Source of the DNA: a virus
DNA: 30,715 nt
Strand: one strand, 5' to 3'
UHGV virus genome: UHGV-0267581
This document shows positions 1,741-27,136 of this stretch, in pieces. Position 1 is the first letter of the stretch; each line of letters begins with the position of its first letter. The notes below the pieces were generated by a model, which saw only the letters and a list, made by a program, of their open reading frames with translations, was not told the DNA's origin and ran no database searches. The position numbers and the translations under genes were made by a program.

Positions 1741-1749
1741 GGAAATGGT

Positions 1750-10167: not shown

Positions 10168-10213
10168 GTTGAATACCTCCATGCAGTTATTTACTAGGCT
10201 TAGGGAGAAGGGA

Positions 10214-10867
10214 TTATTTCTTAGAGCTAAACCATTTTGATTCTGAGTTCCACTTCCCGGCACGGGAGAAGAATAGATCGTTCTCGTTTCCAACATAGGA
10301 TCGGTGGATACCATCAGAAGCATGACTACGAGCGTTTTTATCTAGAACTTCCCAGATACTATTAAGCTGAAATTCAGATTCGTTTTTACACTCATCATCT
10401 TCATGTTCGATGTTAATCCCGATGGAATCGACTACCCCACGGAAAACAGGGTAAGTGGTTTCAACCTTGCCCGTGTTAGGGTTCAGGAAAACCATCTCGA
10501 TTTTCACATCAGATTTATCGAATTGCTTGTTACGAATCAAGGTAATGTATTCCTCGCGAACGTTAGAAACAGTTACGTTGATCCCGTTGTTGTTGATCTC
10601 CTTCTCTTCGGTATTCGATGAGATTTGAAGAAAATCACCCGTTGCGAGATACGTAAAACCGTTATAGTCCAAATCGAAATACCCATCTGTAAGCCGTAGA
10701 ACGTCCCCTGACGCGGTGACTGCTTCGATAATGTGAAACATCGATCCAGTGGAGAAAAGTTGCGGTAGCGTCAATCTAGATACATTCTGCCCTGTCTGGT
10801 CGTTGTAGACCTCGATGAAGTCCAGATTGGTGCATAGTTTGCTGAATGATTCTTGAATAGTTGCCAT
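10214..10867 (-). CDS. minor tail protein (gpL-position; 217 aa)
   Basis: Start set at the ATG (MATIQ...) overlapping the upstream stop (TAATG) with GGAGA SD; positional call only. Confidence 0.5.
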   Translation of the reverse strand: MATIQESFSKLCTNLDFIEVYNDQTGQNVSRLTLPQLFSTGSMFHIIEAVTASGDVLRLTDGYFDLDYNGFTYLATGDFLQISSNTEEKEINNNGINVTVSNVREEYITLIRNKQFDKSDVKIEMVFLNPNTGKVETTYPVFRGVVDSIGINIEHEDDECKNESEFQLNSIWEVLDKNARSHASDGIHRSYVGNENDLFFSRAGKWNSESKWFSSKK

Positions 10868-11427
10868 TATACATTCTCCACTAATTCGAATTTCATCTTG
10901 CCAATCTGGGCGATCTTCCAATCGATGTTTTCAGTTTTGAGAAGAAATTCGCCCTCTACGTTCTGATACTTGATCACCTCACCCGCTAGGACGTTTTGGC
11001 GCAAGTTAGGGAAGAGTTTCATTTCACCACCTGATTTCACGTCTTCGGTGATCGTGTAGATTTTCTTGTGGTTCTCAAACTGGATGATAGTTCCCGCTTT
11101 CAGTGTTCCGGTGAAGTTGGAGAGTCTTACCTTGCGCCCACCGCGAGCAGTACCAGCAGCAGCCGTAACCATCTGGCGTACATCACCTGTATATTTTGAA
11201 AAGTAAGACAGTGGCACACTAAAAGGACGACCAAAAAGGTGACGTGCTACAAATTCTTTTACTTCGTTAATATCCTGAGCCATGTAATTCGCGGTAAATT
11301 CTGCTTCGTAAAAATGGATGCCAGTAAAGCGACGCTGGAACTTACCGGAGATAGATTGCGCCTTGAAGAAAGGTTGTTTTGATTTAAGAGTAAAATCTGT
11401 GATTTTAATATTCTTGGATTTGAACAT
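10867..11427 (-). CDS. minor tail protein (distal tail / gpM-position; 186 aa)
   Basis: First gene after the tape measure gene; positional call only. Confidence 0.5.
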   Translation of the reverse strand: MFKSKNIKITDFTLKSKQPFFKAQSISGKFQRRFTGIHFYEAEFTANYMAQDINEVKEFVARHLFGRPFSVPLSYFSKYTGDVRQMVTAAAGTARGGRKVRLSNFTGTLKAGTIIQFENHKKIYTITEDVKSGGEMKLFPNLRQNVLAGEVIKYQNVEGEFLLKTENIDWKIAQIGKMKFELVENV

Positions 11428-11477: not shown

Positions 11478-13832
11478 TTACATCTTACGGCGTTGTGCGT
11501 CTTCTACCGCCTGAGCAACTAACTTAGCGTGACGTTTGATAGCATCCATGACCATCTTGTCTGAGCTATTAACGTTGCCGTTAATGTTCAAAGGTGCGTT
11601 AACTTCAATCGGCTGAGAGTTGCCACCGCCTGATTTTTGAGCAGCAAGGAAGTCTTTCAAATCACCGTTAGTACGCTGATCAACTACTCGTTCACCCTTA
11701 TCAAGCAACCATGTACCCTCACGAGGGATATTATCGATACCATCATGAGCCATACCGCTAACGTTAGTAGACTTGATGTTTGCGATGTTCCCCATGTTCT
11801 GAGAAACAGCCAATGCAGCAGCAGCGATCTTTTGTCCTGTGGTTACGTTGGTCGGATCGTTCCATGCATCGGTAGCAGCCGTCCACATGTTCACCGTCGC
11901 TTGTCCAATGGAGAATGCTTTATGAGCATTGAAAGCCATCTGCATAGCTTTAGTGTTTTCCTGCCCGAAGAGAGTCATTGCAGCAGCAAAACCGCCATAC
12001 ATATCATCGGCTATTGACTGGCGAGCATCAGCATATTTCTTTTCAATTGCAGCCATCCGTTTTTGATGGTTTTCATTGAGTTTTTCTAATGCAGCCATCC
12101 GTTTAGCTGGATCATTAATACCATCAATATTGAGTTTTTCGGTCTTATAATCTTGTTCAGCTTCCGATTTCTCTTGATCGATTGCATTAAATTTAGCAAA
12201 CGGGTTATTTGAATCCTGATAGTCTAAGCTATTAGTCAATTGATTGGTTTTAAAACCATCCATTCCCTGTAACTGACTATCAATCTGAGAATAGTTTTGC
12301 TCGGTATCATTCACACGACGCATATATTCTTCGTAGGAGATAGCTTTACCATCAAGTAACCGTTTATGGCTTTCTAGCTCGTTGTCCCTGATTTGTTGCA
12401 AAACTGTTAAGGCATTCAGAGCATCAATCGGATCAGCACCCAACATCATTTTATAGATGTTTTCTGCGTTCTGATCTAACAGTTGCTGACGTTTAGCGGC
12501 TGCGTCTTGCTGAGAGATTAAGCCCATATCTAAAGCAGTGTCTAAATCTTTCAAGCTGGCTTCTAACTGCTTGTTTTGAGAAGCAATAGACGCGGCTGTC
12601 TGTCCTTGCAATTTAACATCAAGAGCATTCAGTCGCTTGATTGCATCCTCGCGTGCTTTCTGTGCTTTTTCTGCGGCTTCCTTAGCCTTTTTAGCTGCCT
12701 CTTCCGCTTTCTTCTTGGCTTCTTCTTGTTCTTTTTTCGATGGTCCGGTGACGCCTCCACCTTGACCCGTTGGGGTAAATCCGGTATCCGATTTATTTCC
12801 AGTGATAGTAATTACCGGATCACCGTTTTTATCACGGGTAACGCCTTCACTATCCACCCAACGATCAGGATAATTTGGTTTATTGTTGAAGCTGGCTTGT
12901 CCACCCGCTAGACCAGTAGAACTATAACCATGCTTGTTAATAAAACCACCGTTAGCCATAGCCATATTCTGGCGAGCTTTTTCAAACCTTTCATTAAAAG
13001 TCTTTAATGCGTTGAATAAAGCGGTCTTTTCCCAATCTTTATCAAACCAGTTGTAAAGATTATTCATCCCTTCAACAACTGGATTTAGTGCATTTGCAGC
13101 CATACCCTTTAAGTTATCGGTAAGGGTATCCATATTTTTAGAGAATTTATTATATTCTTCGGCTGTGTCATTGGTGATTTTAACAGTTTGCTGATTAATG
13201 GCGTTTACAGCTTCCTGATAAGATCCGTATTTCTGCAATTCATCAGCCATATGACTTGAATCACTGGCTAACGATTCCATCATAAACTTAACATCAGCGA
13301 TAGACGCACCAGCCTTGCGCATATCATAGAAGACCTTGATCGCCGCTTTCATCCCGCCTTGTGGATCGTTCATAAACTCGGCATAATCTTTAATCTTCAA
13401 ACCTACACTTTCTAGGTCGTCTTCAATACCGCCACCGTTACGCCATGCATCAGCCAGCTTATCTAAGGTGTCTTTGTTAATATCACCAAATTTCTCAACG
13501 GTTAAGCCAGTACCGGAGAATTGCTTCTCTAATTTCTGGAGTGTTTCGACGGTTAAACCAGTTGCTTTTGAAACTTCGCTGTATTCCTTTACATAATCAC
13601 CGATGGCATTTGCAGCAGAAATAGCGCCAGCAGCCAAACCAACAAAACCACCAGCAGCCAAAGCAAGCGATCCACCAGTTCCGCGAAGGGTTCCACTTAA
13701 ACTAGATAAACCACCAGACAAATCAAGATTCATTGCCCTTTCTGAAAGGTTATCAAGCATCTCTATCGCCTGATTGGTACTTCTCCTTAGACCGTCATTA
13801 TCTCCTTCTATTGTTACTATATGTCTTGTCAT
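11478..13832 (-). CDS. tail tape measure protein (784 aa)
   Basis: Long protein directly after the chaperone pair; Gly-rich hydrophobic segment near the N-terminus, extended coiled-coil stretch (KKEQEEAKKKAEEAAKKAKEAAEKAQKAREDAIKRL); followed by a hairpin. Confidence 0.85.
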   Translation of the reverse strand: MTRHIVTIEGDNDGLRRSTNQAIEMLDNLSERAMNLDLSGGLSSLSGTLRGTGGSLALAAGGFVGLAAGAISAANAIGDYVKEYSEVSKATGLTVETLQKLEKQFSGTGLTVEKFGDINKDTLDKLADAWRNGGGIEDDLESVGLKIKDYAEFMNDPQGGMKAAIKVFYDMRKAGASIADVKFMMESLASDSSHMADELQKYGSYQEAVNAINQQTVKITNDTAEEYNKFSKNMDTLTDNLKGMAANALNPVVEGMNNLYNWFDKDWEKTALFNALKTFNERFEKARQNMAMANGGFINKHGYSSTGLAGGQASFNNKPNYPDRWVDSEGVTRDKNGDPVITITGNKSDTGFTPTGQGGGVTGPSKKEQEEAKKKAEEAAKKAKEAAEKAQKAREDAIKRLNALDVKLQGQTAASIASQNKQLEASLKDLDTALDMGLISQQDAAAKRQQLLDQNAENIYKMMLGADPIDALNALTVLQQIRDNELESHKRLLDGKAISYEEYMRRVNDTEQNYSQIDSQLQGMDGFKTNQLTNSLDYQDSNNPFAKFNAIDQEKSEAEQDYKTEKLNIDGINDPAKRMAALEKLNENHQKRMAAIEKKYADARQSIADDMYGGFAAAMTLFGQENTKAMQMAFNAHKAFSIGQATVNMWTAATDAWNDPTNVTTGQKIAAAALAVSQNMGNIANIKSTNVSGMAHDGIDNIPREGTWLLDKGERVVDQRTNGDLKDFLAAQKSGGGNSQPIEVNAPLNINGNVNSSDKMVMDAIKRHAKLVAQAVEDAQRRKM

Positions 13833-13835
13833 AAA

Positions 13836-14210
13836 TTACCCCAATTGTCCGCTCTTGAGCTTTTGTAATAATGAAGCGTCGAAAAAACTATCAACCAAAG
13901 CAGCGTTACGTTCTTCCTCTTTCTTACGAGCAATTTCTTTTATTTCTTCTTGCGTTTTAAATTGCTTGTCGTCCTTAATCATTCGGAATTGGTTAACATT
14001 GATTTTATTCAACCATTCACGAGTCATGTTAGGAGATGTAACGTGCATGTAATACATCGACTGTGCATGTCGCGCATCTTGAAACAGGGGGCTTTGTGGT
14101 TCAAGATATGTATCGAATATATGCAACGCCCAAAATAGCGTAATTGGCATATTATCCATCTCATCTTTACTCAAGCCCCGACGCATCATTTGCCGAAAAT
14201 AAAAATTCAA
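13836..14210 (-). CDS. tail assembly chaperone, T segment (expressed as a G-T fusion by -1 frameshift; no ATG of its own, opens with TTG)
   Basis: Open frame lying -1 relative to the upstream G-like ORF, sharing a 16-nt overlap that contains A-AAG immediately 5' of the G stop; conserved position between the tube region and the tape measure. Confidence 0.55.
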   Translation of the reverse strand: MNFYFRQMMRRGLSKDEMDNMPITLFWALHIFDTYLEPQSPLFQDARHAQSMYYMHVTSPNMTREWLNKINVNQFRMIKDDKQFKTQEEIKEIARKKEEERNAALVDSFFDASLLQKLKSGQLG

Positions 14211-14218: not shown

Positions 14219-14527
14219 TTACTTTACCTCGTTTTCAATTACCGCCGCATCTTTCATCAATGATGCTTGAGCAACTAAGCCGATTAATTCGCTGCGGACG
14301 CTAGTATACAATGCCTTAACTTGTTCAATAGATTCAAATACTGGCTTACCGTCTTCATCTTCAATACAACGAAGAATAGAGCGTTCATCACGGTCTTTTT
14401 TATCAGTATTGAAAACATGTTCATTAAATTCTTGTACCGACATAGGGCGAGCATAGAACGTAAATCCTCCGAGGGTTAAAGATTCACGTTTCGGAGAAAG
14501 AGCTTTCAGCATTTCATTCAGATTCAT
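14219..14527 (-). CDS. tail assembly chaperone (gpG-like, 102 aa)
   Basis: Small acidic protein immediately upstream of the tape measure; the downstream frame is open in -1. Confidence 0.6.
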   Translation of the reverse strand: MNLNEMLKALSPKRESLTLGGFTFYARPMSVQEFNEHVFNTDKKDRDERSILRCIEDEDGKPVFESIEQVKALYTSVRSELIGLVAQASLMKDAAVIENEVK

Positions 14528-14572: not shown

Positions 14573-15079
14573 TTAAGAGATTTTCAAAGTCTGCTTAGTG
14601 CCAGTCTTCTTAATGTTATTGAGGAAAGCAGCCGGAGGATTGCTTAACCAATAGTAATGAAAACCGCTTTGCATACTGTTATAAGGAACAGTGACAGCAG
14701 CACCACCCAAATTAACGGTTATATTCCCCGCTCTACCGTTCTGGAGATATACAGCCATAGTAGGAGTACCGCCATTGAATTGACCAACGATAACGCCAAT
14801 CAGACGCCCTACGCCCACGTTTTCGGGGTTCTCCATAGATCCTTTACCGCGCATGTCAGTTACTGGATAGTTTGAAGCAGTTACACCCCAGTTATTACCC
14901 AATGAAGTAGACCACGCAGCAGTAGCTACAACCGTATCCATACCACGACCACACATCGCACTCATGTTAGCTGGGCGACTAACCTTTAATGCGTTCATTG
15001 CTGCGCTCATCCATCGTTGACCAGTTACAGAAACAGCAGATGACCCGACCCAGCCAGGCTTATTAACGACATTCGCCAT
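14573..15079 (-). CDS. virion structural protein of unknown role (168 aa; Gly/Ala/Ser/Thr/Asn-rich, almost uncharged)
   Basis: GGAG SD 8 nt upstream; lies between the tail-tube candidate and the chaperone gene. Confidence 0.5.
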   Translation of the reverse strand: MANVVNKPGWVGSSAVSVTGQRWMSAAMNALKVSRPANMSAMCGRGMDTVVATAAWSTSLGNNWGVTASNYPVTDMRGKGSMENPENVGVGRLIGVIVGQFNGGTPTMAVYLQNGRAGNITVNLGGAAVTVPYNSMQSGFHYYWLSNPPAAFLNNIKKTGTKQTLKIS

Positions 15080-15094: not shown

Positions 15095-15121
15095 AAAAAA
15101 GCCCCACCATTAAGGCAGGGC
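15095..15121 (-). terminator. intrinsic terminator downstream of the tail-protein extension (GCCCUGCC-UUAAU-GGUGGGGC then U6 on the minus strand)
   Basis: 8-bp stem with two G-U wobbles, 5-nt loop, U-tract; near-identical copy at 20930-20955. Confidence 0.6.
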
Positions 15122-15127
15122 TTATAA

Positions 15128-15250
15128 TTAATCTTTAGCCTTGCGGCTTCGTTTAGCTGTGGCTTTCGCCGTAACTTCTTCTACTTCTGGAATCACCACC
15201 GCTTCATGTTCCGGCTGTGGTTCCGGTTCGGGAAGTTCTTCGTTAGTTCA
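15128..15250 (-). other. in-frame recoded extension after a TGA stop (39 codons: TNEELPEPEPQPEHEAVVIPEVEEVTAKATAKRSRKAKD, ending TAA)
   Basis: Hand-translated; same frame as the upstream gene, no internal ATG, UGA-ACU-AAC context and C-terminal VTAKAT...RK.K motif shared with the extension after the capsid gene. Confidence 0.55.
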
Positions 15251-15721
15251 TCCGGCAGTGAAGATTTGCTGTTTCAGCGGAGCACCATCCACCGCGAAGG
15301 TAAACTCTTTGGTTACAACTTCTTCATCGCCACCGTTCATAGCAACTTTAGAAATGAAGCCGTTGAAAGCGGTGCGAATACCAGTCTGTTTTGCTGCGTC
15401 AACGTAATATTCTACTTTAATCTGAATACGAGTACCGTCTTCGGCAGCTTTGATCAGTTTTTCATGTACCGCATCGCCTGGGATGTAGTTAACGGTCAGA
15501 GTCAGATCAGGAACGTTCAGCTTCCCTACCAGTTTACGGTTATACTGAGAAGAGAAGGATTTAACTTCTACAGTACCGCGCTCGATACCAGTTTCAGGAA
15601 AACCAGCACACTCTTTAATTTCTTCGTAGCTTTCGTGGTCGAGAGCGGTATTAGTGGTGTCCGCGTGATAGAACAGACTTACCAGACCACCAGTAAAAAT
15701 ATCTTTGAATTGCTGAGACAT
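15248..15721 (-). CDS. major tail (tube) protein candidate, 157 aa
   Basis: AAGGGGTAATTCT SD context shared with the other abundant late genes; size and position fit a tail-tube protein; carries the TGA-readthrough extension. The role (tube versus other abundant virion protein) is inferred. Confidence 0.5.
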   Translation of the reverse strand: MSQQFKDIFTGGLVSLFYHADTTNTALDHESYEEIKECAGFPETGIERGTVEVKSFSSQYNRKLVGKLNVPDLTLTVNYIPGDAVHEKLIKAAEDGTRIQIKVEYYVDAAKQTGIRTAFNGFISKVAMNGGDEEVVTKEFTFAVDGAPLKQQIFTAG

Positions 15722-15777: not shown

Positions 15778-18700
15778 TTATTTAGTTGCTTTCAGTTCGG
15801 CAATTTCTTTCTGTAATGCTTCGATCTGGGCTTTATATTTGGCGTCCATTTCCTGCATAGCTTTGATGATTAAAGCATTGACAGCAGAGTTAGAAATAGT
15901 CTTGATTGCTTCTGGATTTTCTGGATCTTCGGTGGATTGAATACCTACTGCTTCCGGCAATACTTCTTCCAGATCCTGAGCAATAATACCTACTTCGCGT
16001 TTAATCACACTACGGTCTTTAAGAGATTTAACTTTATCGTAGGTGTAGACTTTCAGTGAGTTTACTTTCTCTAATGCGCCGTCCTGTAATTCTTCCTTGT
16101 TAATCTTCAAACGGGAGTCAGAGCGAATGTAAACATCGTTAAACGAACCGTTACGACCTGCGGTAAAGTCACCAGCAGCGTTAAAGTCAAAGTTAGTATC
16201 ATGAACATGGAGACGAACAAGAGCGTTACCGATAGTACCGTCAGGAACGTGCACACCCATTGCTGCAATGTGATATTTACCCCAATGCGTCGCTTTCCAT
16301 ACGTTATGTGCCGAGTTGGTGGATTGAGGACACCCAACCATAAGACCAGCAGCACGGTCACGCCAGCTAGCCCAACTACCGCCAGCAACTTCACCACGAA
16401 TCAGGCCATTACCGCCACCGGTTACAGTACCAGATTCCAACTGGATCATTTTATCTGCAAATTTCCACATCTGGGCTTGTTTCTGACCACGGAAGCGAAT
16501 AGCACCAGCATCATCGCAGTACATCAAGCCTAACTCTAAACCGTTCGGATCTCTAAACCAGATGTGCTTATTGCCAGTGCGTTTAAACTCAATATCAGCA
16601 CCGTTGATAGTGATATTACCGCCAGTGTGAATTGCTTGAGGCTTAACAGTACCGTTGATGGCAAACTCAATTGCCGTAGTACCCGGACCGCCCGGACGTT
16701 GGGTATACCAATGCCAACCGCTTTCATCAGCACATTCAAATACTTGTTTACGAGCATCAGCGCCCCATGCACGAATATTGAAACTAGAAGTAGCTGTACC
16801 CTTACCCCAGCGAATCAGACCAGCAGATTCCAAATCACCGAAGAATTTAGTTTTAATCGCACCAGTTGCTAAAGTACGTTCAGTGGTGAAGTGAGCACCT
16901 TTACTATCTTCAAGCTGTATAACGTTATCACGAGCGTTATTGCTATCGCCCCAATGACTCAAACGGAAATAGTCGCGGGATTGTCCAGCACCAGCATCAA
17001 ATGTTAAATATTGGCCTTTAATGTATGTGTTTCCAGCAAAACGAGCAGCACGACTTGCACGTTCTAAGACTAATGCACCTTCGTTACCATCACCACCCAA
17101 AGTAACATTACCGCTACCCAGATTGTAAATGAATGGACGATAGCCGTTCCAACCACCAAATTTATCATTTTCGGCAGTAGACAGAAGATATACGTTTTGA
17201 CCATCATTACGCCAGAATGCACCATAGTTACCGTAAATCATACGGAATGCATCACTGTTAGCAGCTACATATTGACCATTGGTGTATACAATTTTGGTAG
17301 CACCTGTGCTTAAAGATACTTGACCACTTGCTTCTAATTTAACAAAGTTTTTACCTTCGTCACTATACCATTGAAAATCGTTAGTATCTGTAGAACCAAA
17401 ACCAAACCAGCCTTGACGTTTATTAGCCCCGTCTCGCTGATCCATATATTCAAAATAGTTACTACGACCAGTAGGACGCCACATACGAATCGCGTTATTG
17501 CCTTGCAGATGAAGTCTATCGACAAATAAACCATCACTACCAACAATTTTTAATACTTCTTTTTGGTCGGTGGAACCAGTAGCCAAACGATACACATCAC
17601 CTTGAACAGTTTCATGCCATATTGTTTCCGCCGCACGACTGCGGAATTTACGCATATATTTTTTATTGTTGTCTGGTACGTTATTAAGGCTCACAATATC
17701 ATAGGTTGCTTGTGAGTTATTATCAAACATCAACGTTCCGGCTTTGTTTTCGGTGTTGAACATCGTAATAACACGAGCATCGGTAACACCAACAGAAGGT
17801 TTAACGAGAGTTAATTCAGGAACATCATGTACTGTCAGAGTAACGCCATCAGTTTTACCGTATTCGACAATAACGTTATCGGTGTAACGACCGTAGTTAA
17901 CGTAGATATCGTAGTTATCACCGGAAGTATTAACCGCAAATACTTGATGAACGTTCAGAGCATTTCGACGATAAGCAGCAATACTAACGCCTTTCGGGTT
18001 ATTGTTACCGGAACGGATGACAATTTCTACAAAGTCAACCTGATCATAAGAGTTAACGTTATAACCATTACCACCGAAGATACGAAGCATTACCATTCGA
18101 CCATTCTGTGGGATCGTAGCGGTTGCGATCTTGAAGTATCCACGAGTAGCATCACCAGAAGGAACGGTCATTCTAACGTTCTTGATGAACATCTGATCAA
18201 CTTCGGCTTTACTATACACACCCAATTCAGTCGGAGTCGGCTTATCACCTTCGTGATACATGCGGTAGCTGAATCGCTTATTACCATCTTTATCAAAGCC
18301 ATAGGTTTTAACTTGAGATGAGCTAGACCCATAGTGGAACTCAAAACCGCGACCGTGTGCTTTACCGCCAGAATGAGGAATGTTAAGGATTAAGTTACCC
18401 CAACCTTCGGCATTGTTTGGACGGAATGCACCAAAATAATCAAGGTTACGAGCACCAGCATCATCAAAATAGTTAGCTGTTTTGGTTAACAGATAGCCGT
18501 GATGGTAAGTGTTGGTATTCTTCTTGATGTAAGCAGCATCGGCACTACCTTCAATAGAATCAATTCGCTGGTTAGCTGCGGCAATTGCGGCATCAGTAGA
18601 AGATTTATTCTGGTCTACCTTGTTGTTAATTGCTGTATGGTTGCTATTAACTGTCCCCGTAAGATTGGTGATCTTCGTGTCGGCATCGCGTTTATTATTT

Positions 18701-19278
18701 GCTACGGTCGTTTCTATGGCTGATTTATTTGCTGAGACAGTATTCGTTAAGTTAGTAACGTTGGTATTAGTCTGATCAACTCGTGCATTAATATCTGTCT
18801 TGTTCTTGTTAATTGTTGCGTTGATAGTATCGCGGGTTGAAGTAATAGTCTGATTCAGTTCAGTCTTAGCAGCCGCCAGAGCGTTAGCCGCTTCGGTTTT
18901 ATTGTTACCTACTGTGGTAGTCAAAGCATCAATTCGTTTGTTGGCTGCGGTGTCGCCAGCAGTGATTGAAGCATTGAGAGCATCACGGGTAGAAGTGATA
19001 GTCTGATTCAGTTCAGCTTTAGCACTAGCCAGATTATTAGCGGCTTCTTGTTTGTTGGAAGCAATAACACGGTCAGTGCTAGTTTTGTTATTGTCTACTT
19101 TCGTATTCAGTTCAGCGTGTTTTTCTGGAGAAACACTAATTTGGACTACGTTATTATTTTTGTCTTTGGTGTAAATCACATGATCCGCCAACTGTAAGGC
19201 GATTTCACCCTGTGATAATTGTTCCGGCGTTGGTTTTTTACCCGCCGTCTGTGTGCGTTTAAATTGGATTGATTGCAT
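15778..19278 (-). CDS. side (L-shaped-type) tail fiber with C-terminal intramolecular chaperone, peptidase S74-like (1166 aa)
   Basis: C-terminus YIRSDSRLKINKEELQDGALEKVNSLKVYTYDK... matches the autoproteolytic chaperone signature known from phage T5 pb1 and endosialidase tailspikes; N-terminal 51-residue tandem repeats (ELNQTITSTRD twice); two KPTPxELG fiber-anchor-like motifs (residues 15-22 and 346-353). Confidence 0.8.
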   Translation of the reverse strand: MQSIQFKRTQTAGKKPTPEQLSQGEIALQLADHVIYTKDKNNNVVQISVSPEKHAELNTKVDNNKTSTDRVIASNKQEAANNLASAKAELNQTITSTRDALNASITAGDTAANKRIDALTTTVGNNKTEAANALAAAKTELNQTITSTRDTINATINKNKTDINARVDQTNTNVTNLTNTVSANKSAIETTVANNKRDADTKITNLTGTVNSNHTAINNKVDQNKSSTDAAIAAANQRIDSIEGSADAAYIKKNTNTYHHGYLLTKTANYFDDAGARNLDYFGAFRPNNAEGWGNLILNIPHSGGKAHGRGFEFHYGSSSSQVKTYGFDKDGNKRFSYRMYHEGDKPTPTELGVYSKAEVDQMFIKNVRMTVPSGDATRGYFKIATATIPQNGRMVMLRIFGGNGYNVNSYDQVDFVEIVIRSGNNNPKGVSIAAYRRNALNVHQVFAVNTSGDNYDIYVNYGRYTDNVIVEYGKTDGVTLTVHDVPELTLVKPSVGVTDARVITMFNTENKAGTLMFDNNSQATYDIVSLNNVPDNNKKYMRKFRSRAAETIWHETVQGDVYRLATGSTDQKEVLKIVGSDGLFVDRLHLQGNNAIRMWRPTGRSNYFEYMDQRDGANKRQGWFGFGSTDTNDFQWYSDEGKNFVKLEASGQVSLSTGATKIVYTNGQYVAANSDAFRMIYGNYGAFWRNDGQNVYLLSTAENDKFGGWNGYRPFIYNLGSGNVTLGGDGNEGALVLERASRAARFAGNTYIKGQYLTFDAGAGQSRDYFRLSHWGDSNNARDNVIQLEDSKGAHFTTERTLATGAIKTKFFGDLESAGLIRWGKGTATSSFNIRAWGADARKQVFECADESGWHWYTQRPGGPGTTAIEFAINGTVKPQAIHTGGNITINGADIEFKRTGNKHIWFRDPNGLELGLMYCDDAGAIRFRGQKQAQMWKFADKMIQLESGTVTGGGNGLIRGEVAGGSWASWRDRAAGLMVGCPQSTNSAHNVWKATHWGKYHIAAMGVHVPDGTIGNALVRLHVHDTNFDFNAAGDFTAGRNGSFNDVYIRSDSRLKINKEELQDGALEKVNSLKVYTYDKVKSLKDRSVIKREVGIIAQDLEEVLPEAVGIQSTEDPENPEAIKTISNSAVNALIIKAMQEMDAKYKAQIEALQKEIAELKATK
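18821..19060 (-). repeat. intragenic tandem direct repeat in the fiber gene (two units about 153 bp apart)
   Basis: Identical 18-mer TAGTCTGATTCAGTTCAG at 18846-18863 and 18999-19016 with similar flanks; encodes the duplicated ELNQTITSTRD segments. Confidence 0.7.
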
Positions 19279-19359
19279 CTAGAATCACCTCACTATAAAA
19301 CAGGAATAAGGGAGGCGTTAACCTCCCAACGTTCATGTTTTATTTAGGTAGGAGAATCC

Positions 19360-20193
19360 TTAGTATTCGCCGAAATCGATCCGGTCAGTCTTAGCCACTG
19401 CGCCAATTTCGCTAGGTGTCGGTTTCTCATTGGTGGAATATACCTTGATCCATTCAGAACGACCGTTTTCCTGAATATTTCGGACACGTAAACGCGGTGC
19501 GCCAGAAGTATTACAGGTTAATTGCCATGCGCCATGCTCATTAGCTTGAAGGTGAATTAATGCTGTGTCGGTTGAATATGGATTACCGCTAGCAGTTCCC
19601 TTGTAAGTTACGAAACGGTTTCCGGCTAATGCCTCGCTGTCAATCGGACCCGTGAATGGATTTACACCAGCACCCAAACCAAAATCACCCTGACGTAAGA
19701 TCCGGCCTTCGGTAGCAATACCCCTTGCCAAAATCCCGCCATCTGGTTCAAGTTTAAATTCCAGTGTTACAGCTTTGTTATCACTACCACGGGTTTTATG
19801 TGATGTGACGTAAGCATCGAATATACAAAAGTACCCTGTGTTAGCAGCACTATAGCCAGAGTTCACAACATAGAACATACGGAAGCGTAAAGGTGTTTTA
19901 TCCTCTACCGCTTTCATCAACATTGCTTGATGTTCATCGTCAAGAACACGGTTTAATGTGAGTGTTGTCGGTTCCAGTCTACGATAACCAGCAAGTTTCC
20001 CCGTAGCGTCCTGATCGTACTCTTCCAGAGTTTCTATCTCTGTGGATTCGGTTAGCGTAGGGAATGCTGCGATGTTCTCCATAGAACTAAAGCTAGGATC
20101 GAAAAAGTCGACCTGATTGTCTATCTGGTTAGAGATCGACACTTCAACATGTGATCCAGTGAAAATATCTAAGTTATCTTGTGTAATATTCAT
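19360..20193 (-). CDS. virion structural protein (277 aa); possible tail or collar protein with a C-terminal KPTPSEIG motif
   Basis: Late-operon position between connector-size genes and the fiber; the C-terminal NEKPTPSEIGAV resembles the motifs in the fiber; followed by a hairpin. Confidence 0.5.
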   Translation of the reverse strand: MNITQDNLDIFTGSHVEVSISNQIDNQVDFFDPSFSSMENIAAFPTLTESTEIETLEEYDQDATGKLAGYRRLEPTTLTLNRVLDDEHQAMLMKAVEDKTPLRFRMFYVVNSGYSAANTGYFCIFDAYVTSHKTRGSDNKAVTLEFKLEPDGGILARGIATEGRILRQGDFGLGAGVNPFTGPIDSEALAGNRFVTYKGTASGNPYSTDTALIHLQANEHGAWQLTCNTSGAPRLRVRNIQENGRSEWIKVYSTNEKPTPSEIGAVAKTDRIDFGEY

Positions 20194-20202: not shown

Positions 20203-20625
20203 TTAAAAACGCGCTAGATAAGAAAATTTAAGGCTAAGTGTCCCAACGATACCCCCATCACTAGAATCATCGTCATAATCGGTATTAGAAGCTACTGGAG
20301 TGATATCTGAAATAGAGAAGCCCAAATCTTTAAATCGTGGGTTATCCGGCTGAATCTGGATTATCTGGCAAATACCCTCATGGATTTTTGTTTCATGAAT
20401 CTGAGAATATAATTGCATTTCGATAACGCATTCAGCTTGCATTGCATTACCACCACGAACACGCGTATAAGTTTCATTCATGCCAGTAATCCAACAAACC
20501 ACGTCATCACTAAAGCCTTGCTGAGTTTGTTCTACGTTTAAAGCCAGACCTAAATCTTGTTCGATAATATCTTGCAAGGCGCGTTTGATTTTCAGTCTCG
20601 GCATATTATTAACGGTAGCGAGCAT
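20203..20625 (-). CDS. head-tail connector or tail completion protein candidate (140 aa)
   Basis: Position after the capsid gene; AGGGGG SD; small acidic protein. Positional call only. Confidence 0.45.
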   Translation of the reverse strand: MLATVNNMPRLKIKRALQDIIEQDLGLALNVEQTQQGFSDDVVCWITGMNETYTRVRGGNAMQAECVIEMQLYSQIHETKIHEGICQIIQIQPDNPRFKDLGFSISDITPVASNTDYDDDSSDGGIVGTLSLKFSYLARF

Positions 20626-20899
20626 GTGTACCCCCTGCTAAAGTGATAAAGCAATCACAAGTATTGTCACCATTGCGCTTAACGTATTGAACTTTGAAAC
20701 GCTGGTTTTCTACTGTGACAATATCACCTTGCTTTAAGTCTCCCTCACGACAGAATAGAAATTCGGTTTCTGTCATTACACCTGATTCGTCGGTAGTAGT
20801 AATTTCATGGTAAGCACGAATTGATTTACCACCTTCCACCGAAAATACAGGAGCACTTTTAAACATTCGATTTAATTGTGATTCTGATAATTTGAACAT
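20609..20899 (-). CDS. head-tail connector / head completion protein candidate (96 aa)
   Basis: First gene after the capsid terminator. Positional call only. Confidence 0.45.
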   Translation of the reverse strand: MFKLSESQLNRMFKSAPVFSVEGGKSIRAYHEITTTDESGVMTETEFLFCREGDLKQGDIVTVENQRFKVQYVKRNGDNTCDCFITLAGGTHARYR

Positions 20900-20929: not shown

Positions 20930-20955
20930 AAAAAAGCCCCACCGTTAGGCAGGGC
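20930..20955 (-). terminator. intrinsic terminator downstream of the capsid extension (GCCCUGCC-UAAC-GGUGGGGC then U6)
   Basis: Near-identical to the hairpin at 15095-15121, including both G-U wobbles. Confidence 0.6.
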
Positions 20956-20961
20956 TAATTA

Positions 20962-21093
20962 TTATTCTTTAGTTTTACGTTGTTTTTTAACTGTGGCTTT
21001 CGCCGTAACCGTCTGAGATTCTTCTTCCTGAGATGGAATCAGATTTTCTTCCCCCAAATCGGGGGAAGGTTCAGATGGTTCTACGTTAGTTCA
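20962..21093 (-). other. in-frame recoded extension after a TGA stop (42 codons: TNVEPSEPSPDLGEENLIPSQEEESQTVTAKATVKKQRKTKE, ending TAA)
   Basis: Hand-translated; same frame as the capsid gene, no ATG, conserved UGA-ACU-AAC context and VTAKAT basic tail shared with the 15128-15250 extension. Confidence 0.55.
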
Positions 21094-23097
21094 TTCAGCG
21101 GAGATGTGAAGAACTTTCAGAGCTTCCGGCTGAACTACGGTGAAGTCCAGGTCTACCCAGATACGCGGAACGATAGCAGACTGTGCGCGGTAAGTGGTGT
21201 CGTCCATATCCAGTTCCAGACCACCCCATTCACCGATCATGATACCGGAGAAGTCACCCAGAACGATGTGGTCTGCCGGAATAACGCCAGAAGTAACTAC
21301 ATCGTAACCAGCCAGTTTGCCGTTTTCGATGATATAACCGGAAACGCCGTTATCTTTCAGGGTAGATTCCAGTTCAGCAGCAGTTGCACCGCTCATTGCA
21401 AACTTGATGGACTGTGCCGGAACGCCAGCGTCGGTCAGTGCTGCAATTTCTTTCAGGAAGTCTTTGTAGCTAAAAGCGGCTTTCTTAGTAACGCGACCAC
21501 CGTCTACCAGTTGCTTAACCAGACCTTTCGGACCGCGCTCGTTGTCTTTGTCAGACAGAATCAGTTGTTCCAGTTTGATCCGAACAGATTTGTTAATGTG
21601 ATCAGTGATCAGGGTAGCAATATTCGGAACAGTTTTCAGAGACTGACGGCTGATCGGGTTGCCACCAGCAAAAGTTTTCGGAGCCATTTTCACGTTTTCA
21701 AAGCTAGCCTTCGATTCGGGGGCACTTCCATTTTCATCAACAAAACCAAAGGCTTCGACGCTGGAAGCAGTCATTTTTGGTACTGCAATCGGGCTATTCA
21801 GACCAGACAGAACAGTCACACCCAGACGACCCAGAACAGACTGTGGAAGCAGCATTTCTACATAGGATTCGGTCAGCAGTTTTTCGTCGGTTACAGCGGT
21901 CAGAGTAGCTTTGGTGTTACCTTCGGAAGCAGCACGCAGAGCAGCAGCCGGAACGAATACAGAGCCACCGCGAGCAGCACGACCACGCTGCATTGCAGCA
22001 CCAGCAGCCATAGCGGAATATTCAGCTTCGTTAGCGCCGAGCACGTCGCCATCTACCAGGGAGCGGATTACGTTATTAAGATCGAAAGTTTTTTCCATGA
22101 TTTGTTCCTTATTAATTTGTTCGTTATTACGTTGAACATTGGTAATGTTATTTAGTGCCTTAGTGCGGAATGCTTCCGGCGTCATATCTTTAACTGCCAA
22201 TGCGCGTTCTAATTCTTCGTCGTTAATATTTAACTCACGAGCGATTGCTCGGATTTCTTCTTCGTCTTCTTCGGAACGTTCAGCCACTTCTTCTATTTTT
22301 TCTTCTTCAACCGGAGCGGCTTCACGTTCTTCTTTTACTTCTTCTGTTTCCCGAACAGTTGAACTATCATCATCAACACTTTCAGGATGTTTAGCGTCTT
22401 TTCCGTCTTCGAGATTTTCATCTTCTTTATTCTCTTCAACTTGGCGCTCTTGAGTTTCTTCTACTTCCGGTTCTTTATTTTCTTCTACCGGAGTTTCTTC
22501 AACCTGAGCGGGTTCTTGTTCTTCTTTGATTTCTTCGATTTGTTCTTTAGTCATATCGCGTTTAGCCTCCAAATTAACTGTGATAGTATTTAGAGAGCGA
22601 TTCAGACCCACGGTGTCGTCTGCGGGAACAGACACCCATGAAACCTCGTGAGGAATCCATTTAGTAACAATCAATTGTCCTTTGGTGTAGTCGATGTGAT
22701 ATTCTTTAATGTCATAACCGACAGAAATTTTTTCCATCGTACCTTCAATGACTTTATTACGAATATCATTAGCCAAAGTGCCATGCTTAGAGAATTTAAC
22801 CAGAGCACGACCTACGTTATCCGCATCGATTCGAGCGTTACAAACGACACCAATATGATTATCGAAATTATGATTGAACAGCAACGGAGCGTTATTATTC
22901 AGACGAGACAGATCAACCGCTTCCGGTGTATGTACCAGAATTTCATCTAATACCACCATTTCTTGATTTTGCTCATCCCAGAATTGGCGCTGATAAGGCT
23001 GTTCACTGGAGAAAGCAATTTCAAATTCGTATTGATCATTCTGCCCTTCGTTAATAACTCCACCGTAACCGTTAAGATCGCGGCGAAATTTAAGCAT
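21091..23097 (-). CDS. prohead protease / acidic linker / HK97-type major capsid protein encoded as one 668-aa polypeptide
   Basis: N-terminal roughly 170 aa resemble HK97-family prohead proteases; a roughly 120-aa Glu-rich low-complexity linker follows; the C-terminal roughly 300 aa resemble HK97-fold major capsid proteins; sits after the portal in the canonical order. Confidence 0.8.
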   Translation of the reverse strand: MLKFRRDLNGYGGVINEGQNDQYEFEIAFSSEQPYQRQFWDEQNQEMVVLDEILVHTPEAVDLSRLNNNAPLLFNHNFDNHIGVVCNARIDADNVGRALVKFSKHGTLANDIRNKVIEGTMEKISVGYDIKEYHIDYTKGQLIVTKWIPHEVSWVSVPADDTVGLNRSLNTITVNLEAKRDMTKEQIEEIKEEQEPAQVEETPVEENKEPEVEETQERQVEENKEDENLEDGKDAKHPESVDDDSSTVRETEEVKEEREAAPVEEEKIEEVAERSEEDEEEIRAIARELNINDEELERALAVKDMTPEAFRTKALNNITNVQRNNEQINKEQIMEKTFDLNNVIRSLVDGDVLGANEAEYSAMAAGAAMQRGRAARGGSVFVPAAALRAASEGNTKATLTAVTDEKLLTESYVEMLLPQSVLGRLGVTVLSGLNSPIAVPKMTASSVEAFGFVDENGSAPESKASFENVKMAPKTFAGGNPISRQSLKTVPNIATLITDHINKSVRIKLEQLILSDKDNERGPKGLVKQLVDGGRVTKKAAFSYKDFLKEIAALTDAGVPAQSIKFAMSGATAAELESTLKDNGVSGYIIENGKLAGYDVVTSGVIPADHIVLGDFSGIMIGEWGGLELDMDDTTYRAQSAIVPRIWVDLDFTVVQPEALKVLHISAE

Positions 23098-23142: not shown

Positions 23143-24654
23143 TTAGGGATCGGTTTGAGAAGGGTTATCCTTGCTCTCACCATCAACGATAATATTTAGT
23201 GCGCTCTTTTCGGCTTGAATCTCTGAGAATACTTTTTCAGGATCATCACCACGTTCTAATATAACGGCAGTACGTGATTTAAGTCCGTTATCAATTAAAG
23301 CAATCTCGGCGCTTACGTCTTTAAATGGATCGACGGATTCAAAACGAGGACGAATAATAGTAGTGTTCTCGATAATATGCGGAATTGCAGTAATACGAAT
23401 CGGAACAATACCACGCGCAGAATAATGGCGTAGATATGCTTCAAAAATTGGCAATACCACTGTTTCAATCAATTTGTTTTGCAGTGCTTTAACGCGCGTT
23501 CTTTGAAGTAATTCGCCGTAGCGTGCGGCGCTGTAATTTATTTGGCTAGTATCGCCAGTTAAGCCCTGATTGAACACGCCAAGACCCATCGCTATACTCG
23601 TGAACATTCCATCATTGAAGCTGTTAAAGTCATCGCCGCTTTGCGTGGATTGAATACTCTTGATCGTTGCCCCTTCCGGTAATTCCTGAATAGTACCTGG
23701 CGCGAAATCGTGAATAACTTCCGGCGCTTGATATTGTTCATCATCTTCACCAGTATCAAAATCGTCACCAGAATCTTTCGGACGCTCGATGAACGCCATG
23801 CTACAACTTGAAATTCGTTTATGTACCAGTACAGCTTCGCGGAATGCGTCTTGATGTGCGATATCCTTAATCACTGGCAGGAAGTCAGTCACACCACGCA
23901 GAGATTCAGCCGCAAGTGGTTGATAATAATGACATACTTGCGAAGCATCTACGCGATAGTTATCACCTGTGTAAGTCTGAGTCAGTAGGTTGATTTTACG
24001 AAACCAAAATGCAACAGGGCGCATTGTTTCTACGTCATACTCGATCCCCTGATAGATAGCGCGTTCTTTGCTTACTTCACGGTTGAGCGTCCAGTCGCAC
24101 TTATCAGCAGACAGGATAGAAACATTTAACTCATTGTTTTCTTTGGTTAAAACTATGAAGCACTCACCACCCATAACGCGCTCACGTTCAGCCATTACCA
24201 GCAATTCACGGAAGTTAAAGCGACCGTTACGAGAGAAGCGTTTAGCATTCTGCGCCCACTTCCAGAAAGCATTCTCGATCTGCTTATTCAGTGCGCTATC
24301 AAGTTTTCCATTTGATTTAACAACTGACGGCTTCGGATCTAGGCCAGTACCTACCACCATATCGGTGATGTATTGCGTGTAGCGACTGCCTACGGAGGTG
24401 TTTAAGGCCAGAGTACGACCCTGATCATAAAGGCGCTTACCATTCGATTTGAGAGCCTTATTGAAGGTTCCTGTGATAGTATCTTGTTGAAGCGATCCAT
24501 CAATGCGATCACCAACCAGACCTAAACTTCGAGTAGCCAGAGATTTCTGGAATTTTTCTACTTGTTTGTCGATAAAGATTTTTTGTTGTTGCTGGCGGTG
24601 ATTAGTTTTAACTGGAGTTTCTACCGCCTTTTTGCGTCGAAAAAGATTAAACAT
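23143..24654 (-). CDS. portal protein (lambda gpB-like, 503 aa)
   Basis: Position between the gpW-like gene and the protease-capsid gene; size and weak sequence resemblance to lambda-family portals; AAGGGGTAAA SD. Confidence 0.75.
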   Translation of the reverse strand: MFNLFRRKKAVETPVKTNHRQQQQKIFIDKQVEKFQKSLATRSLGLVGDRIDGSLQQDTITGTFNKALKSNGKRLYDQGRTLALNTSVGSRYTQYITDMVVGTGLDPKPSVVKSNGKLDSALNKQIENAFWKWAQNAKRFSRNGRFNFRELLVMAERERVMGGECFIVLTKENNELNVSILSADKCDWTLNREVSKERAIYQGIEYDVETMRPVAFWFRKINLLTQTYTGDNYRVDASQVCHYYQPLAAESLRGVTDFLPVIKDIAHQDAFREAVLVHKRISSCSMAFIERPKDSGDDFDTGEDDEQYQAPEVIHDFAPGTIQELPEGATIKSIQSTQSGDDFNSFNDGMFTSIAMGLGVFNQGLTGDTSQINYSAARYGELLQRTRVKALQNKLIETVVLPIFEAYLRHYSARGIVPIRITAIPHIIENTTIIRPRFESVDPFKDVSAEIALIDNGLKSRTAVILERGDDPEKVFSEIQAEKSALNIIVDGESKDNPSQTDP

Positions 24655-24664: not shown

Positions 24665-25159
24665 TTATCGCGTAAGACGTAATTTGATATTTTTAATCGG
24701 ACTAATTCCCTGTTTACGTCGTTCGGCTTGAATTAATTTAGATAACTGACGTTCATAATCAGTCTTTAATTGCTGGAGAACAGCCAATGACTCATAGGCG
24801 AAAGTATTCCCTTTCACTGTCATTTGAGATAATGCGGCTTCGTCCCCAGATAAACGGGCGAAAATAACTTGCTCGATTAAGGCGATAGTTTCCCGCAGAT
24901 ATTCTTTTTTGGATTGTTTGGCGAATACTGGCAAAACAGTTAATTCCTGCATTGATACCAGTTCTTCTTCCAAAGTTATTACGATGGTATATTTACCTTC
25001 GGCAAAATCTAAGGTTTTAATCTCATGATTAGCCGGAGAATCATCAACCTGATAGATAATACCTTTATTATTTCCTACCTGAATTGTTACACCCTCTTCA
25101 TTCGCCAGCGTGACTTTTTCGCCTTTACGAATTACTAAGGGAATTAGTTCTAAACTCAT
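24665..25159 (-). CDS. head-tail joining protein candidate (gpW-like C-terminal domain with an N-terminal extension, 164 aa)
   Basis: Position between terminase and portal, as for lambda W; the C-terminal half loosely resembles the gpW pattern. Confidence 0.45.
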   Translation of the reverse strand: MSLELIPLVIRKGEKVTLANEEGVTIQVGNNKGIIYQVDDSPANHEIKTLDFAEGKYTIVITLEEELVSMQELTVLPVFAKQSKKEYLRETIALIEQVIFARLSGDEAALSQMTVKGNTFAYESLAVLQQLKTDYERQLSKLIQAERRKQGISPIKNIKLRLTR

Positions 25160-25231: not shown

Positions 25232-27136
25232 TTAGAACGATGTTACCCAGCTACGGCCTCTATTTGGGCGTCTGGCGATGTTTTTACGTTGTGGTCGTGT
25301 GATTGGCTTATTTTCTTCGATTTGCTCGTCAGATTGCGATTTAGGAGCTTCTACGGGTTCTTCTGGTTCGCGGTTCAAACTATCTTTGATGGCTTCGAGT
25401 TTTTCCCATGACATTTTATTGAGTACATGGCGAGAAGCAGCATAGGAATAAGCCAGGCAGTCGAGAGCCTCGTTTCGTTGCTGACCAACTTTTACCCAAC
25501 GTGTGGTATTACCCTGCCGTTTCAACTGTTCAGATAACAATTGTTCGCAGTAGTCATCAGGAACGTCACCAATCTGGAAGACCGTATGAGGATCGCTGTC
25601 TCTCAAGTTCCGGTTAATCATTTCACGGATCATCGTCTTAAGGTTGTTTACGCCCAGAATTTTAAGAGTAAAACCACCCGTTCTTGTGTCCTTGACCGGA
25701 AGGATTGGAGCATCAACATTGCTTGCCCCTTTAATGGCGCATAGGTTTTGCCACCTAGTGCAGAAGCGATAGATCACGTTTGTAGCTCGTCCGTTCGATG
25801 AGTCCACGAAAGCAGATAGCATCGGGATTCGTTGACCTGATCGGGTATAGAATTTAGCTTTCAGGAAGTTGTAAAGCTGGTCATATGCTGGCGATTCGTG
25901 GCGTTCGCAGTTCACATCATAGAATGATCGGTGATCAACTACGCATATCCCCTTACGAGAGATACCCAGCAAGGTAGATTCCAGACGGTCTTTTTGCTGG
26001 TCAACTCCACCTACCAGAGCCAGAACATCATCAGGAATATTATCTAAGCTAATGTCAGTTTTCAGCGTTTCCAGTTCGTCGGCTGTGCGGTCTTCGTTAA
26101 GATCATCGAAGGTTTCACCGAGCACCACATTATAGAACGTTGCCAGTGACATATTCGCGTAGCTATCAGCAAAGTCCACCACACACGCACGGATAGAACT
26201 AAACGGAGACATAAGGCGGTTAGCATGAAAACCGATTACTTCCGCATTTGGTTCGGTGGCGACCCATTCTCCCTGAGCAACAGCACGGAGGCGATCTGGT
26301 TCTGACCAATCAGTTTCACATGACGGGCAACGGTAAACGGCTGTGTCTGGATTCGGCAGTGATTTACCATTGATTACATGCCAATCAAAGAATACTCTAC
26401 TCCATTCCATTACGTGTTTGTGTCCGCAATGCTGGCAAACGACGTGGTATTTTCTTTTATCCGAGAGTTCCCATTGTTGGTTTATCGCCCCATCCCGCGA
26501 AGTTGGAGTAGAAGCAATTACGATCCTTGCATCATCACCGAAAGTGGTTGCGCGTTGTTCCGCTAGCTGGATCGGGTTCCCTTCGTCTGACTCATCAGCC
26601 GCATCAACTTCATCCAGAATAATCAAAGGCAGTGTCTTACCGCGCAAGTGTGATGGACTGTTCAGCGACATGAAATACATGAATGATCCGTTACGAAGCT
26701 GAATAATCGATGAGTTGTTAACGGCATTGCGATCTGATTTGTCGGTGATCATCGCCTTTAATTCTGGGGTTGCCTCTAATACTGGCTTCACCTTACCCGC
26801 AATCCATGAGTTCAATTCTCGAACGTTCGCTTGCAAAACACCGATATTAGTAGGGTTACTGGCGATCCTGTGAAAGATAATACCGTTTAGCACAAGAGTT
26901 TTACCCAACTGTGCCGAGCACTTTAGCACAATTTTTCGCCTATCTTCGGTGATCGCGTCCATCATTCCACGTTGGAAGGGATGCAACTTAATTAGAGATC
27001 CGGCTTTAACACCATCGGTTGCAACTACATTAGCCTCTACCCATTCGCTAGGTTTCATCGTTTTAGGTGGGCGAATTGCCGCAGAGATATTTTTAAGAAT
27101 CTTTTTTAATTTGGCCTTATTAGAAATCAGTTTCAT
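25232..27136 (-). CDS. terminase large subunit, lambda GpA family (634 aa)
   Basis: Walker A CSAQLGKT and Walker B LIILDEVD; segments resembling lambda gpA (PSEWVEAN, HPFQRGMMDA, CQHCGHKHV, RNEALDCLAYSYAA); first gene of the late operon; GAGGG SD. Confidence 0.9.
   Translation of the reverse strand: MKLISNKAKLKKILKNISAAIRPPKTMKPSEWVEANVVATDGVKAGSLIKLHPFQRGMMDAITEDRRKIVLKCSAQLGKTLVLNGIIFHRIASNPTNIGVLQANVRELNSWIAGKVKPVLEATPELKAMITDKSDRNAVNNSSIIQLRNGSFMYFMSLNSPSHLRGKTLPLIILDEVDAADESDEGNPIQLAEQRATTFGDDARIVIASTPTSRDGAINQQWELSDKRKYHVVCQHCGHKHVMEWSRVFFDWHVINGKSLPNPDTAVYRCPSCETDWSEPDRLRAVAQGEWVATEPNAEVIGFHANRLMSPFSSIRACVVDFADSYANMSLATFYNVVLGETFDDLNEDRTADELETLKTDISLDNIPDDVLALVGGVDQQKDRLESTLLGISRKGICVVDHRSFYDVNCERHESPAYDQLYNFLKAKFYTRSGQRIPMLSAFVDSSNGRATNVIYRFCTRWQNLCAIKGASNVDAPILPVKDTRTGGFTLKILGVNNLKTMIREMINRNLRDSDPHTVFQIGDVPDDYCEQLLSEQLKRQGNTTRWVKVGQQRNEALDCLAYSYAASRHVLNKMSWEKLEAIKDSLNREPEEPVEAPKSQSDEQIEENKPITRPQRKNIARRPNRGRSWVTSF

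Follow-up and report, generated by a model that had tools for sequence, protein, structure and literature searches.

UHGV-0267581, the window of this study (the whole stretch of DNA analysed, 30,715 nucleotides, nt), contains at positions 15778–20193 a two-gene module which encodes a protein of 277 amino acids (aa; 19360–20193) and a fibre of 1166 aa (15778–19278). Both open reading frames (ORFs), with coordinates in agreement with an earlier note on this DNA, lie like the other genes of the region on the minus strand. On balance we think it probable that the module specifies the receptor-binding side fibre of a temperate Escherichia coli siphophage, in which parts of a T-even long tail fibre are hung on a duplicate of the tail tube protein. 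The two genes are in frame and separated by 81 nt; translational read-through from the first into the second was considered and rejected, since the gaps in relatives are 75–82 nt and mostly not multiples of three.

The fibre protein

Homology identifies the 1166-aa protein as a distal half-fibre of the gp37 type with an N-terminal domain (residues 1–55), a spacer (56–255) and a body of the phage RB49 gp37 type that includes an S74 chaperone (262–1166). The N-terminal domain or socket (19114–19278; MQSIQFKRT…GEIALQLADHVIYTKD) contains the first of three KPTP motifs, is 37% identical over residues 1–51 to residues 4–54 of RB49 gp37, and reads according to the gp37 pattern xxIQFKRxxxxGxxPxxxxLxxGELAINLxDxxIFTKD. 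With the N-terminal 56 residues, tblastn found matches in 1296 phage records, T2 and T4 among them; within the 40 matches listed, which come from genomes of 131–264 kb, all that are annotated are fibre proteins, mostly gp37 or long tail fibre distal subunit.

The body opens with the gp37 knob domain (residues 262–355; 18214–18495), which is homologous to residues 71–164 of RB49 gp37 and ends in the invariant FSY[KR]MYHEGDKPTP. It is followed by the gp37-type shaft and tip (356–1052; 16123–18213), with a Gp34_trimer domain at residues 608–718 (PF21446, E 2.5e-28) and PDB sequence matches to 4UXE and 5NXF. Residues 262–1163 are 72% identical in amino acid sequence to residues 71–977 of RB49 gp37, and the best PHROG families are gp37 families (phrog_1699, E 1e-138). 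At the DNA level a megablast search of 50,697 phage records matched only positions 15874–18483 of the window, to gene 37 of RB49-like T4-type myophages (Krischvirus) at 77–88% identity. A search for homologs of residues 1–370 returned only partial or short proteins.

Residues 1053–1166 (15781–16122) make up an S74-type intramolecular chaperone. Peptidase_S74 (PF13884) matches residues 1053–1111 (E 8.6e-14) and begins at S1053 of SDSRLK; the earlier note had named both the chaperone and this site. The pattern SD[SA]RLK recurs in 12 of 16 E. coli-type fibres, and self-cleavage at S1053 is predicted by analogy with the family. The tip is mosaic among relatives.

Between socket and knob lies a helical repeat segment rich in Ala, Thr and Asn (residues 56–255; 18514–19113) with periods of 51 and 11 residues. 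By autocorrelation the mean BLOSUM score at an offset of 51 is 0.92, compared with a shuffle maximum of 0.44, and the 11-residue spacing is a sub-period; Tandem Repeats Finder detected no tandem repeat in the DNA of this region. The segment shows a weak Apolipoprotein match and falls in a gap of the alignment to RB49 gp37. The 51-residue period described previously is real, but it is confined to these residues and does not extend over the 345-residue module to which it had been assigned.

A Proteus mirabilis prophage of the same lineage is instructive in this respect, as its region comprises three consecutive proteins of 275, 198 and 675 aa. The first is a homolog of the 277-aa protein; the second starts MKSIQFKRT…, contains helical repeats and ends …MDFGTF at its stop codon; the third is gp37-like and has an N-terminal domain of its own (ARIQFKRT…). 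Fibre residues 1–240 align with residues 1–186 of the 198-aa protein (E 2e-33), and residues 263–364 with residues 72–175 of the 675-aa protein, after which homology stops. It follows from these alignments that E. coli and Salmonella have the adaptor and the gp37-like protein as a single chain with its seam near residue 255–262, and that this fused form is without the adaptor's C-terminal plug and without the second N-terminal domain. The earlier proposal of a fused two-module fibre is therefore right as to the modules, which are separate proteins in Proteus, but not as to the seam, which had been placed at residue 346.

The KPTP motifs

The three KPTP motifs are KPTPEQLS (fibre residues 15–22), KPTPTELG (fibre residues 346–353) and KPTPSEIG (residues 257–264 of the 277-aa protein). 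No other real ORF of the window contains KPTP, the one further match lying in a stop-interrupted frame. All three had been reported, although the 12-mer quoted for the second (GDKPTPTELGVY) spans residues 344–355. The last hairpin and KPTP of the 277-aa protein are homologous to the internal knob and motif of the fibre; on this alignment the second and third motifs are the same element, and the relatedness seen earlier is one of homology. The 277-aa protein does not end with its motif, as had been stated: 11 residues follow (AKTDRIDFGEY), and these are its most conserved part. The first motif is of another kind, since it falls within a non-conserved stretch of the gp37 N-terminal domain where T4 has TRPAASVL and RB49 has RRPDAGTM, and its description as a second anchor motif has to be given up. 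RB49 gp37 possesses GDKPTPSEL at residues 153–161, behind the same knob domain, so that the internal motif is an ordinary part of gp37 and residues 346–1166 are not the complete fibre they were taken for.

These observations bear upon the explanation first offered for the module, namely an L-shaped side fibre of the T5 type in which fusion has put a complete fibre (residues 346–1166) after a repeat module of 345 residues and the KPTP motifs act as duplicated virion anchors. The S74 chaperone is common to T5 pb1, the two-module origin is real, and some pairs of fibres do break at residue 346. However, the chaperone is all that the fibre has in common with pb1: its best families are gp37, homology to the gp37 of T4-like phages begins at residue 262 and not at 346, the repeats stop at 255, and a PDB sequence search with the fibre returned gp34 and Mu S but not pb1 (4UW7/4UW8). 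The occurrence of the internal motif in RB49 gp37 and the lack of conservation of the first one in T4 and RB49 argue in the same direction, and we regard a T5-type fibre as very improbable.

The fibres are strongly mosaic. Those of the window and of the related locus L003 are 100% identical up to about residue 349, at the KPTP motif, and 57–73% identical beyond it; at deeper divergence, in Proteus, P0079 and phage DCP80, homology ends or insertions start directly after a KPT motif. Diversity within the gp37-like body is lowest in the 12-codon window at residues 337–348 (nucleotide diversity 0.057; alignment-wide mean 0.257). A unique recombinational hot spot at the motif was nevertheless rejected: with 16 fibres the tract ends were about 5-fold enriched at residues 338–359, but the enrichment was gone with 44 distinct fibres; in these the end points are scattered throughout the N-terminal half, and the excess reassortment across residue 346 is 5, against 2–6 at control positions. 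Crossover can take place at the motif, which also borders a module, but it holds no privileged position as a hot spot. Of the recombination joint that had been suggested, there remains the fact that some end points, as between the window and L003, fall on the internal motif, while any excess over controls does not.

The 277-aa tube paralog

From its alignments the 277-aa protein is a paralog of the tube protein (residues 1–163) whose C-terminal 100 residues are of the gp36 type, consisting of a knob, KPTP and …IDFGEY. The tail-tube-fold domain (residues 1–163; 19705–20193) is 30% identical over residues 3–163 to the whole of the resident 157-aa tube protein (E 1e-14), and the protein bears both the tail-tube fold and sequence kinship to siphophage tube proteins (lambda gpV-like, Phage_TTP_11/phrog_158). 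Between this domain and KPTP is an anchor domain (residues 164–254; 19432–19704), which aligns with residues 396–470 of RB49 gp36 and recurs in conserved form in long fibres, at their N-terminus (profile positions up to approximately 258). The full match, of RB49 gp36 residues 396–496 to residues 180–277, is 31% identical (E 1e-5). The remainder (residues 255–277; 19363–19431) comprises KPTP and a gp36-type C-terminal plug, NEKPTPSEIGAVAKTDRIDFGEY, in which D273 and G275 are invariant within the family of the 277-aa protein. Up to their stop codons the endings are …VYSTNEKPTPSEIGAVAKTDRIDFGEY in the 277-aa protein, …LYHEGNKPTPADVGAVPLNAVIDFGTF (…NKPTPADVGAVPLNAVIDFGTF) in RB49 gp36 and …IVIKDSVQDFGYY (…QDFGYY) in T4 gp36.

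Pfam did not match the C-terminal domain of the 277-aa protein or the N-terminus of the fibre at E up to 10, and over the former no hit to Phage_T4_gp36 (PF03903) was obtained even at this threshold. The same family was matched in a relative of 1209 aa, P0112 (E 1.4e-6).

The 277-aa protein is neither the terminator nor the major tube protein, as there is a separate terminator protein and a hairpin follows the 157-aa gene. It might instead co-polymerise with the 157-aa protein along the tail, or serve as a second major tube form, so that fibres or stubs would emerge at many levels, in the manner of the Ig-domain or frameshift-extended tube proteins of lambda, T5 and SPP1. A full tube fold with 30% identity to the tube protein would suit such a role, and C-terminal decoration of tube proteins is common: a metagenomic relative (L009, below) has an extra domain, and phrog_158 is a profile of 376 positions. 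On the other hand, relatives fuse the same domain to S74 fibres of 900–1350 aa, which is implausible at roughly 200 copies per tail; the strong terminator hairpin follows the 157-aa gene and not the 277-aa gene; and the precedents in T5 and T4 are single extra rings. Co-polymerisation is in our opinion quite unlikely.

A proposed plug-and-socket joint

In the long tail fibre of T4, gp36 joins the N-terminal end of gp37. Altogether 16 joints were compared, drawn from the window, Salmonella, Proteus (two), metagenomic and IMG/VR loci, DCP80, RB49 and T4. In every one the upstream protein ends D-x-G-x-(F/Y/E) at its stop codon and the next gene, 8–81 nt downstream, starts with a gp37-type domain. 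The types of plug and socket pair one to one, DFG with IQFKR, DLG with IKFKR, DAG with VRHYR, DEG with LQLFR, and DFGLE with FKFRR, a correspondence which would fit direct contact between the two.

Distribution and relatives

The family of the 277-aa protein forms 79 clusters in E. coli, Shigella, Salmonella, Providencia, Edwardsiella and Proteus; these carry zero Pfam domains, and nearly all named entries are "hypothetical protein". When 1.84 billion representatives were searched with a profile, 274 matched; the best 149 of these were used for counts of architecture. The tube domain is N-terminal in 124 of these 149, and 95 of the 124 are at least 600 aa long (median 891 aa), while 15 end in the plug. 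P0125 (1057 aa) and P0169 (1349 aa) contain the tube domain, a whole fibre and the S74 chaperone in one chain; P0112 has several KPT modules, its gp36 match and a plug ending. Examples of these types reside in the same backbone, with the gene directly between terminator-like and tube genes. A scan of contigs, one genome per species, with the family alignment recovered no relative.

Across genera the order terminator, paralog, fibre, tube, chaperones, tape measure is conserved. The region is present with this gene order in 55 of 5426 complete E. coli genomes, 14 of which cover at least 80% of it, and in 47 IMG/VR loci; IMG/VR contigs of the prophage type are about 35–38 kb. For the capsid protein, identity to members of the isolated-phage collection does not exceed 43%.

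It might be argued that the module is prophage cargo which is in decay or without function, its resemblances being leftovers of recombination with T4-like phages: all close relatives are prophages or metagenome contigs, no isolate is known, and insertion sequences interrupt some copies (H30, H46). Against this, the ORFs are intact and in the same order in the E. coli genomes just mentioned and in Salmonella, Proteus, Providencia and Edwardsiella as well as in the IMG/VR loci, and the plug, socket and adhesin are strongly conserved. We find decay hardly credible.

One record requires comment. L001 is PQ671644.1, "Escherichia phage DCP80", of 141 kb and filed as Gaprivervirus (T4-like), whose bases 1–22000 hold a complete siphophage head-and-tail module of the present lineage. 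It looks like a chimeric assembly.

Tail tube protein and gp38-type adhesin

The major tail tube protein (157 aa; 15248–15721) matches phrog_158 (E 3e-21) and Phage_TTP_11 (E 1.7e-6), the latter at 28.3 bits, just below the gathering cutoff of 28.4. Its TGA stop is followed in frame by an open stretch of 39 codons (TNEELPEPEPQPEHEAVVIPEVEEVTAKATAKRSRKAKD and a stop; 15128–15247, minus strand) which ends just before the terminator hairpin. In 15 of 15 E. coli relatives the tube gene stops with TGA and the extension is open in frame despite whole-codon insertions and deletions and amino acid changes, making this a candidate for stop-codon read-through to a C-terminally extended minor tube protein. 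In L009 (13729–14484) the tube protein itself has 251 aa, its tube domain being followed by a further C-terminal domain (…YPPYSYRWYKDG…); the decoration of the tube evidently varies within the lineage.

The next gene specifies a gp38-type tail-fibre adhesin of 168 aa (14573–15079, minus strand). It contains Gp38_N (PF21721, E 1.9e-15) and matches phrog_1121 over its full length. Identity to RB49 gp38 is 71% over residues 7–48, and identity to a Stx-phage "tail fiber adhesin" is 45% over the full length. Residues 9–65 match residues 6–63 of S16 gp38 (PDB 6F45), the alignment ending at residue 65; no polyglycine-rich C-terminal domain was detected in the protein, the C-terminal part of which matches phrog_1121 and Stx-phage adhesins. 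Across 16 loci (the window and L003–L020) the adhesin is nearly invariant, while the fibre tips before the S74 site are of at least three unrelated types. The adhesin is likely to be attached to this fibre.

Fibre and adhesin genes are apart in the prophage, with the tube gene between them; in RB49, too, the gp38-type gene is located at approximately 46 kb and gene 37 at approximately 152–155 kb, some 100 kb away. A Salmonella relative (L011, 13088–14033) has no gp38-type gene after its tube gene. It possesses three small paralogs of 99, 114 and 99 aa, sited between the fibre and tube genes and having a W..FDIPNGW motif in common, which may be alternative tip proteins or chaperones.

Genomic context

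On the minus strand the module is preceded by genes for the large terminase (25232–27136), a head-tail joining protein of 164 aa (24665–25159), the portal (23143–24654), a protease-capsid fusion (21091–23097), an FII-like protein of 96 aa (20609–20899) and, directly upstream, the tail terminator of 140 aa (20203–20625). Beyond the tube and adhesin genes, on the same strand, are those for two tail assembly chaperones (14219–14527 and 13836–14210), the tape measure (11478–13832), a distal tail protein of 186 aa (10867–11427), two small tail proteins (10214–10921 and 9748–10323) and a J-like tip protein of 1258 aa (5972–9748). An endolysin of 117 aa (3964–4317, minus strand) and a large serine integrase (phrog_95; 1735–3429, plus strand) are found past the tail genes. 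The tape measure, distal tail protein, J-like tip and serine integrase make the element a temperate siphophage. The ORFs of the window yielded no homolog of gp34 or gp35; the fibre is not on a myophage baseplate, and the backbone is that of a siphophage.

Near-identical, strong terminator-like hairpins (AGCCCTGCCT…GGTGGGGCT and a run of T) are located on the minus strand after the capsid gene (20935–20956) and after the tube gene (15099–15123), which fits high expression of both.

The placement of the fibre is as unusual as had been claimed, with its genes between terminator and tube and no fibre gene after the J-like gene, where the products are of 92, 227, 115 and 117 aa, the last being the endolysin. 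Tail genes often follow one another as their products do in the particle. The order terminator, paralog, fibre, tube could accordingly be read as placing a ring of the paralog head-proximally, under the terminator, as the base of neck fibres; the helical spacer, 30 nm long, would then let them reach toward the tail tip, and it does lengthen the fibre relative to RB49 gp37. This differs from the arrangement we favour in position only. Gene order is, however, a weak guide, and those extra tube-fold rings that are known to serve fibres or assembly (T5 p140, T4 gp54) adjoin the distal tail protein; a neck location seems to us unlikely.

Proposed attachment of the fibre

According to the reading we prefer, that of a T-even-type side fibre hung on a tube duplicate, the tube domain of the 277-aa protein would be built into the tail tube, where it would most likely form a ring of its own like that of T5 p140, and its C-terminal arms would trimerise outside the tube. 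The …IDFGEY plug would dock non-covalently in the IQFKRT… socket of the fibre, in the manner in which gp36 joins gp37 in T4. The S74 domain would fold the fibre trimer and cut itself off at S1053, and the gp38-type adhesin would cap the new tip and bind the receptor. The split joint may be a version of a covalent anchor, many relatives fusing the tube domain to a whole fibre. Conserved islands such as FSYKMYHEGDKPTP, together with the joint, would permit an exchange of modules both with other prophages and with virulent T4-like phages.

Several points weigh against this reading. Six tube domains would have to feed trimeric fibres. The anchor domain (residues 164–254) was modelled poorly as a monomer (predicted local distance difference test, pLDDT, 30–56), and AlphaFold2 gave no usable model for residues 164–277 of the 277-aa protein. 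The co-variation of plug and socket is confounded by lineage and by gene adjacency, and a PDB sequence search yielded no solved gp36 or gp37 N-terminus with which their contact could be confirmed. The three N-terminal variants of the adhesin do not track the type of tip. Lastly, among isolated phages a relative of the 277-aa protein turns up only in DCP80, whose record looks chimeric.

Comparison with known systems

The closest counterparts of the fibre are gp36, gp37 and gp38 of the T-even phages (T4/T2), RB49 being the nearest. In common are the gp37 N-terminal domain, KPTP knob, shaft, tip and S74 domain, the gp36 C-terminus (…KPTP…IDFG(E/T)(Y/F) before the stop) and a gp38 N-terminal domain 71% identical to that of RB49. 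In contrast to the T-even phages there is here no gp34, no gp35 hinge and no N-terminal part of gp36, the gp36-type end being fused to a tail-tube domain; the carrier is a temperate siphophage in place of a myophage baseplate; the gp37 N-terminal domain is followed by a helical spacer of about 200 aa; and the adhesin has a short Stx-phage-like C-terminal domain and is encoded apart from the fibre, across the tube gene.

In lambda the segments of Stf/Tfa exchanged with T-even gp37/gp38 are a classic case of mosaicism, and the present element is likewise a temperate E. coli siphophage with fibre parts exchanged with these genes. Stf is encoded after J, and its N-terminal immunoglobulin (Ig)-like domains form a 12-mer ring around the distal tail protein (PMC13455828). 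Unlike Stf, the fibre described here is encoded between terminator and tube genes, has a gp37-type N-terminus and is anchored through a tube-fold domain.

T5 is the closest functional precedent, since a ring of a tube paralog, p140, underlies attachment of its fibres. This single ring is inserted where the tube meets the distal tail protein and serves as platform for the p132 collar, by which the L-shaped fibres are held; the authors describe p140 and p132 as restricted to T5-like phages (PMC10038345). The two systems are alike in having an extra tube paralog with side fibres, a self-cleaving S74 chaperone, and fibre and paralog genes which adjoin the tube gene and do not follow the tip genes. 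They differ in that no p132-like Ig collar was recognised here, the paralog itself carrying the joint; that the paralog has a single tube domain, presumably forming a hexamer, and not the duplicated domain of a trimer; and that the fibre is of the gp37 and not the pb1 type. Lambda gpV with its Ig domain, SPP1 gp17.1* and T5 pb6 similarly consist of a tube fold followed by an outward-facing C-terminal domain, but theirs are small decorations on the bulk tube, whereas here a second gene bears a fibre joint or, in relatives, a whole fibre.

Significance

In a literature search neither the anchor nor the prophage lineage was found described. The wider proposal, to which we give about equal credence for and against, is of a hitherto undescribed anchor for side fibres in which a tube paralog within the tube carries the fibre either covalently or by the T-even gp36/gp37 joint. 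The joint would be a portable connector outside T4 that can be chained, as in Proteus (paralog, adaptor, gp37-like protein), and temperate siphophages and virulent T4-like myophages would trade whole receptor-binding half-fibres. The fibre itself belongs to the known gp37 type; what appears to be new is the tube-paralog anchor with the gp36/gp37 joint.

This joint can now be defined simply at the level of sequence, no solved structure of it having been found, and being modular it may be useful for engineering fibre swaps between phages and tailocins. The 77–88% DNA identity documents recent exchange between prophages and virulent T4-like phages. The tube paralog is found in roughly 1% of the complete E. 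coli genomes and, in metagenomes, among at least 95 protein clusters (at the 50% identity level). To our knowledge, the fixation of side fibres to flexible tails is understood for only a few phages, the examples being the collar of T5, the Stf ring of lambda and the central fibre of the F-pyocin. Side fibres determine host range, and a tube paralog carrying the fibre would, if true, be a further mode of anchoring them.

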